From positions 42,836 to 106,835 of the IMG/VR virus record IMGVR_UViG_3300001336_000001: a stretch of 64,000 bases of DNA; one strand, given 5' to 3'. This document shows, piece after piece, positions 44,571-45,080 of this stretch. This DNA is from a virus. Lineage: Duplodnaviria > Heunggongvirae > Uroviricota > Caudoviricetes. Under the pieces are notes generated by a model that saw nothing but the letters and a program-made list of their open reading frames with translations, searched no databases and had not been told where the DNA came from. Both the position numbers and the translations under genes were made by a program. Position 1 is the stretch's first letter. Each line of letters begins with the position of its first letter.

Positions 44571-45080
44571 TTATGCGTTTTCTAATTTTTTAACACCCAT
44601 TAAAGTATCCAAATATTCCCACATAGCTCTACCATCACTTGGTGTGTTTAGGTACAAGGCACCTTTGAACTCTTGGTATTCCTTAGCGTACATATCTACT
44701 TTACCACCATGTTCAATGTTTGCAATTCGGTCAGCCAATTTAAGAATAATAGCATCTGGATTACTAGCAGTCTTGGGTAATGTCTTTTCTTTCTTTTCCT
44801 TTCGGTTTCTACCAAATTCATCCGTTACACAGCAAACCATTTCAAAAACTTCATCACCAAAATATACCCTTATTCTATTTATACTTATACCTGTATCTTC
44901 GAACACATCATGCAAATATCCAGCAACAATGTACTTACCAGAAAAACCATATCTCTTTAACACATCAACAACATCATCCAAATGTTTCTCATATGGGAAT
45001 ATTTCATCATAAGATTGGTTTGAGTGTGCTTTAACTGCAACCATTCTAGCTTCTTTGTAAATTTTCTCTGTGTACTTCAT
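44571..45080 (-). CDS. HD-domain small alarmone hydrolase (SpoT/Mesh1-like (p)ppGpp hydrolase)
   Basis: HLDDV...AGYLHDVFEDT matches the RelA/SpoT hydrolase HDxxED signature. 169 aa. Confidence 0.6.
   Translation of the reverse strand: MKYTEKIYKEARMVAVKAHSNQSYDEIFPYEKHLDDVVDVLKRYGFSGKYIVAGYLHDVFEDTGISINRIRVYFGDEVFEMVCCVTDEFGRNRKEKKEKTLPKTASNPDAIILKLADRIANIEHGGKVDMYAKEYQEFKGALYLNTPSDGRAMWEYLDTLMGVKKLENA

Follow-up and report, generated by a model that had tools for sequence, protein, structure and literature searches.

Introduction

Phage small alarmone hydrolases (SAHs) are already known as a kind, as are the neutralization of toxSAS enzymes and the removal by SAHs of pyrophosphate from the tRNA 3'-CCA end. 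Systems of tRNA-pyrophosphorylating toxSASs such as CapRel are established anti-phage defenses; CapRelSJ46 is a genuine defense of this sort, and Bacteroidetes are among the bacteria that carry CapRel. The stand-alone SAHs of phages PVP-SE1 and SSU5 neutralize CapRel, PhRel, PhRel2, FaRel2 and FaRel, and phages have been proposed to bypass alarmone-based abortive infection via SAHs (Jimmy et al. 2020, PMC7229694). Furthermore, four of five toxSASs pyrophosphorylate tRNA at its CCA end, and MESH1 and ATfaRel reverse the tRNA 3'-CCA pyrophosphorylation made by FaRel2, restoring aminoacylation, an SAH activity that was likened to the 3'-phosphatase of T4 Pnk (Kurata et al. 2021). Additionally, the SSU5 enzyme, PaSpo, has been used to keep CapRelSJ46 and PhRel2 in check while they were purified. 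Jumbo-phage 'HD-alarmone PDEases' are listed as counter-nucleotide enzymes in the passages of Iyer et al. 2021 drawn on here. Enzymatic escape of phages from toxSAS is known only from experiments in which two phage SAHs were co-expressed in E. coli. Here we analyze an SAH gene (44571..45080, minus strand) that lies among RNA repair genes in a 64,000-nucleotide stretch of a Caudoviricetes genome (IMG/VR record IMGVR_UViG_3300001336_000001, positions 42,836 to 106,835), hereafter the window.

We somewhat favor the view that this SAH is an active 3'-pyrophosphohydrolase of relaxed or adenine-leaning specificity, read from its own promoter, that would clear the pyrophosphates set by RelA/SpoT homologue (RSH)-type enzymes from nucleotides and from A76 of tRNA, thereby complementing the neighboring repair enzymes.

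Family and fold of the SAH

The open reading frame (ORF) starts with ATG and encodes a 169-aa protein with a single RelA/SpoT-type HD domain; its limits are exactly those given in the first-pass annotation, and the HDxxED signature noted there is present as HDVFED at residues 57-62 (nucleotides 44895-44912). With Pfam HD_4 (PF13328) the protein scored 43.1 bits, the cut-off being 27.2 (E 4.6e-11). It also aligned with the hydrolase portion at the N-terminus of TIGR00691 spoT_relA (positions 3-120, E 9e-15) and matched phrog_990 (E 4e-31). The HD domain fills the whole protein and there was no second Pfam match, so that synthetase, TGS and ACT domains are absent. Every PDB entry returned by a sequence search was an SAH or a Rel/SpoT hydrolase domain, the best being Listeria Lmo0812 (E 2e-14). 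The AlphaFold2 model, built from a 74-sequence alignment, is all-helical with one domain (pLDDT 95.1, pTM 0.90), and its top Foldseek matches were all SAH or Rel hydrolase domains (probability 1.00), the P. aeruginosa SAH (PaSAH) ranking first and Aph1 being also among them. Template-modeling (TM) scores were 0.72-0.79 to PaSAH, MESH1, RelH and T. thermophilus Rel, and 0.76-0.79 to MESH1. Sequence, profile and fold all speak for a phage SAH, as had been proposed, with its activity being predicted; agreement on this scale is not attributable to chance.

Homologues are abundant. At E<=1e-5 we found 545 of them, the best 120 at 71-99% identity and many on phage-like contigs of 200-466 kb, and for this reason we consider the gene real and under selection. 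A search of 1.84 billion cluster representatives gave 7689 matches at E<=0.001, of which 2094 reached E<=1e-10. Among isolated phages even the best homologues stayed below 40% identity, and the window SAH is remote from the experimentally tested PbcSpo (PVP-SE1) and PaSpo (SSU5) proteins. The bacterial spread of the subfamily, over Bacteroidota, Cyanobacteria, Myxococcota and Actinobacteria, fits pbcSpo2 or Mesh1-L of PMC3153485.

Human MESH1 was the best solved relative of the family profile, aligned over its full length (E 1.6e-23). As metazoan Mesh1 is reported to hydrolyze NADPH to NADH, this kinship raises the idea of a metabolic nucleotide phosphatase that acts on NADPH, or on pAp/PAPS, and rewires the redox or sulfur metabolism of the host; the gene context, in turn, holds no pointer to either metabolism, and we hold such a role to be very improbable.

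Active site and the HD1 tyrosine

The hydrolase domains of RSH proteins carry six motifs, HD1 to HD6 (Bisiak et al., PMC9293644), which in the window SAH correspond to Tyr24 (HD1), His33 (HD2), His57-Asp58 (HD3), Glu61-Asp62 (HD4), Asp117-Arg118 (HD5) and Asn121 (HD6). HD2 to HD6 are intact, and they are near-invariant or invariant across 150 representatives at 40-55% identity. All metal-ligand motifs, as defined in PMC9293644, are present (H33, H57-D58 and D117-R118), the catalytic pair E61-D62 is kept in 149/151 representatives and N121 in 148/151. Y131 is likewise conserved among the representatives and may be the counterpart of the pyrophosphate-contacting Tyr near the C-terminus of Aph1.

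The canonical HD1 Arg, which in RelSeq is R44 and stacks on guanine, is missing from the window SAH. When AHSNQSYDEIFPY and AHKGQFRKNGLPY are aligned without gaps, Tyr24 falls in the R44 column and Asp25 in the K45 column, the placement of Tyr24 in the pocket being based on this sequence alignment and not on a structural superposition. Tyr fills the HD1 column in 140 of the 151 representatives and, among 80 bacterial homologues, in 79; the proteins from phiCbK, CcrColossus, Nodularia, Tenacibaculum PTm5, Rhizobium and Vibrio phages have it too. The next residue, canonically Lys, is Asp in the window SAH and Gly in most relatives. This Tyr in the window SAH and in most members of its family, as read from the alignments, is new; both validated phage SAHs carry Arg or Asp.

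HD1 is a specificity determinant: the R44Q change abolishes hydrolysis by RelSeq, and PaSAH, with Leu at this position, is active and promiscuous (PMC9293644). Aph1, which has Asp, is active and ppApp-specific, and its D24R + R119A variant acquires ppGpp activity (PMC10083569). Since active SAHs carry Leu (PaSAH) or Asp (Aph1 and PVP-SE1 gp220), Tyr at HD1 does not disqualify the protein from being an SAH; the exchange of the guanine-stacking Arg for Tyr means, however, that the HDxxED motif is insufficient to assume (p)ppGpp activity. An aromatic Tyr at HD1 could stack against an adenine base such as that of ppApp or A76. The window SAH is not of the Aph1 type, because the Aph signature consists of D24 together with R96, D116, R119, K133 and Y134 and its own HD1 is Tyr; in addition, Aph1 matched the SAH family profile weakly (E 1.5e-8).

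The same residues bear on a role as modulator of the host stringent response. In that case the SAH would degrade Rel-made (p)ppGpp and so sustain transcription, translation and nucleotide synthesis to the benefit of the phage, with no tie to tRNA or toxSAS and with its position beside repair genes reflecting accessory-gene clustering only. Hydrolysis of (p)ppGpp is the classical activity of the fold, and the jumbo-phage enzymes are filed under counter-nucleotide systems in the Iyer et al. passages; on the other hand, the guanine-stacking Arg and the Lys that follows it have given way to Tyr-Asp, or to Tyr-Gly in most relatives, and D24R is one of the two changes, with R119A, that give Aph1 its ppGpp activity. 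We regard this role as rather unlikely.

Promoter and host

A Bacteroidota-type promoter-like motif, TTTG-N20-TATATTTG, was found at 45100..45131 on the minus strand and ends 20 nt before the ATG of the SAH gene. The pattern TTTG-N19-21-TAnnTTTG, which we take to be the Bacteroidetes promoter consensus, is five-fold over-represented in the window, with 15 matches compared to 3.0 ± 1.8 in shuffled sequences, and 14 of these are on the coding strand, for the most part directly before an ORF start; further sites include 48018-48049, 48549-48580, 57453-57483 and 39599-39629, all minus. A sigma-70 and terminator scan showed no excess over shuffles (42 vs 42.1). The motif before the SAH gene is kept in its closest relatives, L001 and L002, and 22 of 54 related loci have TAnnTTTG at a distance of 12-22 nt before the SAH. 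Given its position before the start codon and its retention in relatives, it is probably a promoter of the gene's own, read by the host polymerase, and this predicted Bacteroidota-type promoter is new. The over-representation suggests, moreover, that many genes of the region are transcribed by the host polymerase. A host-type promoter would equally suit the stringent-response modulator, whose gene is likewise suggested to be read by the host enzyme.

The window also encodes a 536-aa protein (34105-35715, minus) with a C-terminal type IX secretion sorting domain, Por_Secre_tail. This domain is a Bacteroidota-specific export signal, here carried by a phage gene, and together with the promoter motif it points to Bacteroidota as the probable host. 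Megablast found nothing that matched the repair island among 50,697 phage records; the phage, a large one, is therefore uncultured and remote from every deposited genome. At 11516-13284 and 23902-24453 (minus), it codes for a pair of sigma-70-family factors, one being ECF-like, and for a tyrosine recombinase/integrase.

RNA repair genes around the SAH

All the genes of the SAH region are on the minus strand. Upstream lies a T4 RnlA-type RNA ligase 1 (Rnl1) of 372 aa (45957..47075, minus; PF09511 E 4e-13, TIGR02308, phrog_562) and downstream an Rnl2/RnlB-type RNA ligase of 345 aa (42920..43957, minus; PF09414, phrog_548 E 1.6e-55), in agreement with the first-pass annotation, which had placed the SAH between RNA ligases. 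A gene for a 266-aa Thg1-like tRNA-His guanylyltransferase/3'-5' polymerase (45153..45953, minus; PF04446 E 5.5e-25, phrog_4717 E 1e-70) also lies between Rnl1 and the SAH; no homologue of it was found in the 134 related loci searched, and it looks like a recent, strain-specific insertion into a conserved gene order. On the other side, an 87-aa ORF (43980..44243, minus) separates the SAH from RnlB; it has no Pfam or PHROG family match, is also called in the same-strain contig L217 and has a single weak homologue in L020.

Additional repair functions follow on the same strand. A fusion of a polynucleotide kinase (PNK)-like P-loop domain to a 2H (HxT...HxT) phosphoesterase is encoded at 48589..49506 (AAA_33 E 8e-10, phrog_505, weak tRNA_lig_CPD match); its translation shows the motifs HHMT and HITL, which mark this PNK-2H protein as a predicted RNA end-healing enzyme. 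We also found a CCA-adding enzyme/poly(A) polymerase-family tRNA nucleotidyltransferase (56305..57447, minus; PF01743 E 1e-38), an RlaP nucleotidyltransferase of the RNA-ligase-associated Pol-beta family (37829..39016, minus; PF10127 E 5e-24), a HAD_SAK_1 'Swiss-army-knife' RNA-repair phosphatase (20780-21358, minus; PF10307 E 9e-14), a 2H/LigT/Acb1-like phosphoesterase (21348-21917, minus; PF13563, PF23474, PF02834), three Metallophos proteins and a full-length RNase II/R-type exoribonuclease (18329-19879, minus; RNB domain E 3e-108). Arrays of tRNA genes at 51292..53319 (minus) and 27463-29148 flank the repair island, with 19 ARAGORN calls in the window, where an Rfam scan detected nothing beyond tRNAs. 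The whole window is thus a tRNA-maintenance region.

Several side observations were made on these genes. The 2H protein at 21348-21917 passes the Pfam model of the anti-CBASS protein Acb1 (28.6 bits vs a cut-off of 27) and is a possible cyclic-nucleotide-degrading counter-defense gene. ARAGORN called a tRNA-His(GTG) at 53159-53242 (minus) that is 84 nt long, has a long type II-like variable arm and falls below the gathering score of the Rfam tRNA model; it shows a C73 discriminator and T at -1, so that G-1 is not encoded, and the Thg1-like enzyme could add G-1 opposite this C73. A TnpB/IS605 OrfB-type gene (29868-31049, minus) with Cas12f1-like TNB, OrfB_IS605 and HTH domains adjoins the first tRNA array. 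Between Rnl1 and the kinase, a 205-aa ORF (47088-47705, minus) carries the HExxH motif HEIRHE; it had no Pfam or PHROG match, and a tblastn search of the 55 related loci yielded no homologue.

The richness of this equipment bears on the idea that the SAH is itself an RNA end-healing phosphoesterase, the 'heal' partner of Rnl1 and Rnl2, which would clear 2'- or 3'-terminal or cyclic phosphate from broken RNA and thereby prepare it for sealing by the neighboring ATP-dependent ligases. MESH1 acts on monophosphate esters, is an NADPH phosphatase and has been solved with NADPH (5vxa) and PAPS (9chy), relatives of the SAH adjoin PNK-2H, RtcB and RlaP genes, and the likening of SAH activity to T4 Pnk by Kurata et al. 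goes in the same direction. However, no SAH is known to act on RNA monophosphate ends, and the phage already encodes PNK-2H, HAD_SAK_1, the second 2H protein and the three Metallophos proteins. We had considered that the SAH fills a vacant 3'-phosphatase slot, as the kinase is fused to a 2H and not to a HAD domain, and downgraded this on finding HAD_SAK_1, the second 2H and the Metallophos genes; since the HAD, 2H and Metallophos phosphoesterases leave no phosphatase role vacant, the end-healing reading is weakened and appears quite improbable to us, even with the Rnl2-SAH pairs described below counted in its favor.

Conservation of the repair-gene linkage

The window's own clade comprises 55 related phage contigs whose SAHs share 60-88% identity. 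Rnl1 is upstream of the SAH in 45 of them and RnlB downstream in 41, with inserts of varying size (0-4 kb) between the SAH and its ligases, and PNK-2H is upstream in most. The order Rnl1, SAH, RnlB, conserved across most of the 55 contigs, is new. Because synteny within one clade is explicable by common descent, we surveyed distant relatives as well, in a set of 65 de-duplicated viral loci with SAHs at 31-62% identity. An RNA-repair-type gene was present within 10 kb of the SAH in 22 of them and within 5 kb in 18. In seven separate viral lineages a repair gene lies no more than 700 nt from a Tyr-type SAH on the same strand, and these neighbors come from six families (RtcB, PNK-2H, RlaP, CCA-adding enzyme, Metallophos and RnlB). 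Such placement of remote Tyr-type relatives beside repair genes, in other phages and in Flavobacterium chromosomes, is likewise new. In the Caulobacter phages RtcB is a few genes upstream of the SAH homologue, and in a Rhizobium phage the homologue adjoins tRNA genes. The stringent-response modulator finds some support in several homologues that have no repair genes nearby, but leaves the recurrent same-strand adjacency to six RNA-repair families unexplained.

The Caulobacter phages also offered two further observations. In CcrColossus (L064 2241-5636) the order is RtcB ligase, two small ORFs, Metallophos and SAH, the last two being separated by at most 3 nt, and NAD salvage genes lie a few kb downstream of the SAH homologue, likewise in phiCbK.

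Bacterial Tyr-HD1 SAHs are mostly orphans with unconserved neighbors (80 loci). In three Flavobacterium chromosomes, a T4 Rnl2-type ligase (PF09414 + PF18043) lies 28-37 nt upstream of a Tyr-HD1 SAH on the same strand (L138 4921-6504, L141 4933-6510 and L151 4844-6501), and the genes around these tight pairs are of the housekeeping kind, peptidase S46 and a Mur ligase being two of them. Taken together, the association of the SAH with RNA repair genes is suggestive: the link to an RNA repair island, which the first-pass annotation drew from position, recurs in relatives, and the proximity in distant phages falls short of significance (p = 0.09).

We also looked for possible targets of the enzyme. 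No RelA_SpoT synthetase domain was detected in the window ORFs scanned against Pfam, which span 34.1-64.0 kb (~10-19 kb on each side of the SAH). Across the 80 bacterial loci each neighbor family was confined to 8 loci at most, and the Pfam-scanned clusters (the two largest and the ligase cluster) included no RelA_SpoT synthetase. A type IV antitoxin of the ATfaRel type was rejected as an identity for the SAH, given that no toxSAS gene is adjacent in the window scan or in the bacterial neighbor clusters checked. With no toxSAS or pyrophosphokinase gene linked to it in these loci, the target of the SAH is hypothetical. The counter-defense against toxSAS or CapRel that had been suggested for this gene, in essence a published idea extended to a further gene, agrees with the published phage SAH experiments (PMC7229694) and has no linked toxSAS to back it in these scans.

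Proposed role

In the role that we prefer, the host polymerase would transcribe the SAH gene from its own Bacteroidota-type promoter, yielding a Mn2+-dependent, catalytically competent single-domain RelA/SpoT-type hydrolase of the large Tyr-HD1 subfamily. This enzyme would strip the 3'-pyrophosphate set by RelA/SpoT-type pyrophosphokinases on purine nucleotides, (p)ppApp and (p)ppGpp, and would also strip pyrophosphate from the 3'-OH of tRNA A76. A growth arrest of the alarmone or toxSAS/CapRel type could in this way be cancelled, and the unblocked tRNAs would rejoin the pool kept by the neighboring ligases, kinase-phosphoesterase, CCA-adding, Thg1-like and RlaP enzymes. We infer this activity, substrate range and biological role from the family, the active site and the surrounding genes.

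Several points weigh against it. The loss of hydrolysis in RelSeq R44Q indicates that a missing HD1 Arg may change or weaken activity on alarmones, and no member of the Tyr-HD1 subfamily is biochemically characterized in the papers drawn on here. The synteny inside the window's clade may be plain common descent, and only 22 of the 65 distant viral loci have a repair gene within 10 kb. For the 30 of these 65 loci that have full flanks, a distance test found the nearest repair gene to be less than 5 kb away in 7 of 9 cases (p = 0.09, not significant), and a hand count of inner versus outer zones around the SAH gave ~7:4, likewise not significant. No annotated repair gene was found near the SAH homologues of the Nodularia, PTm5, Vibrio helene and Klebsiella phages. 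Lastly, neither the window scan nor the 80 bacterial loci linked a pyrophosphokinase or toxSAS to the subfamily.

A bolder version holds that Tyr-HD1 SAHs are primarily RNA 3'-end 'de-blocking' enzymes that form a module with Rnl1, Rnl2 or RtcB in phages and Flavobacterium, and that they would take pyrophosphate or 2'/3'-phosphate off the tRNA acceptor or broken ends. We consider it unlikely; if true, it would represent a previously unrecognized arm of tRNA repair that answers tRNA-pyrophosphorylating defense toxins such as CapRel. If the window SAH is instead an ordinary alarmone hydrolase, it is one further case of a known counter-measure. The Tyr-HD1 subfamily is widespread in large phages, has lost the guanine-stacking Arg and is repeatedly found beside RNA ligases, RtcB, PNK, RlaP and CCA-adding enzymes, so it offers a direct route to ask whether removal of tRNA 3'-pyrophosphate belongs to phage tRNA repair. 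Culturable representatives are available in gp249 of the Caulobacter phage phiCbK and in the Flavobacterium Rnl2-SAH pair.

Comparison with known systems

Among the phage SAHs with experimental support, PVP-SE1 gp220 (PbcSpo) resembles the window SAH in being stand-alone, in having exactly 169 aa and in its intact HD2 to HD4, and PVP-SE1 is, like the window, tRNA-rich and equipped with a CCA-adding enzyme and RnlB. The two SAHs share 30% identity over 105 residues and the two RnlB proteins (gp239 in PVP-SE1) 35% over their full length. In contrast to the window SAH, gp220 carries Asp at HD1 (NQKDK), as Aph1 does, and has no flanking ligases, RnlB being 6 kb downstream on the same strand. PaSpo of SSU5 is also a stand-alone phage SAH, with the motif HDVVED, but it is longer (213 aa vs 169), has the canonical HD1 Arg (GQKRK) instead of Tyr and no RNA-repair genes nearby; tblastn covered 46% of the window SAH query at 32.5% identity.

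Aph1 (Bacteroides caccae, prophage-encoded, PMC10083569) and PaSAH are, like the window SAH, HD-domain SAHs with a non-Arg HD1. The window SAH differs from both in that its HD5 keeps Asp-Arg and its HD1 is Tyr, and the Aph1 gene adjoins its own MuF-toxin gene. The jumbo-phage HD-alarmone PDEases (Iyer et al. 2021) are the same kind of gene in large phages and, in the passages drawn on here, are predicted to counter alarmone-based immunity; those passages make no mention of an HD1 substitution or of a link to RNA ligases. The PTm5 SAH (BBI90929.1) is a Tyr-HD1 homologue of the window SAH. The example in the jumbo-phage catalogue may come, judging from its accession prefix, from the Tenacibaculum phage PTm1/PTm5 group.

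Closer in active site are gp249 of Caulobacter phage phiCbK and gp212 of CcrColossus, annotated as 'metal-dependent phosphohydrolase', which belong to the Tyr-HD1 subfamily and share 32-37% identity with the window SAH. Both are longer (203 and 307 aa, respectively), and both have an RtcB tRNA ligase upstream on their own strand, whereas the window has the ATP-dependent Rnl1 and Rnl2. Lastly, human MESH1 has the fold in common with the window SAH but is metazoan and carries Arg at HD1, and ATfaRel of Cellulomonas marina is a type IV antitoxin whose gene adjoins that of its toxin, unlike the window SAH, to which no toxin gene is linked. MESH1 and ATfaRel together are the mechanistic precedent for SAH action on tRNA.

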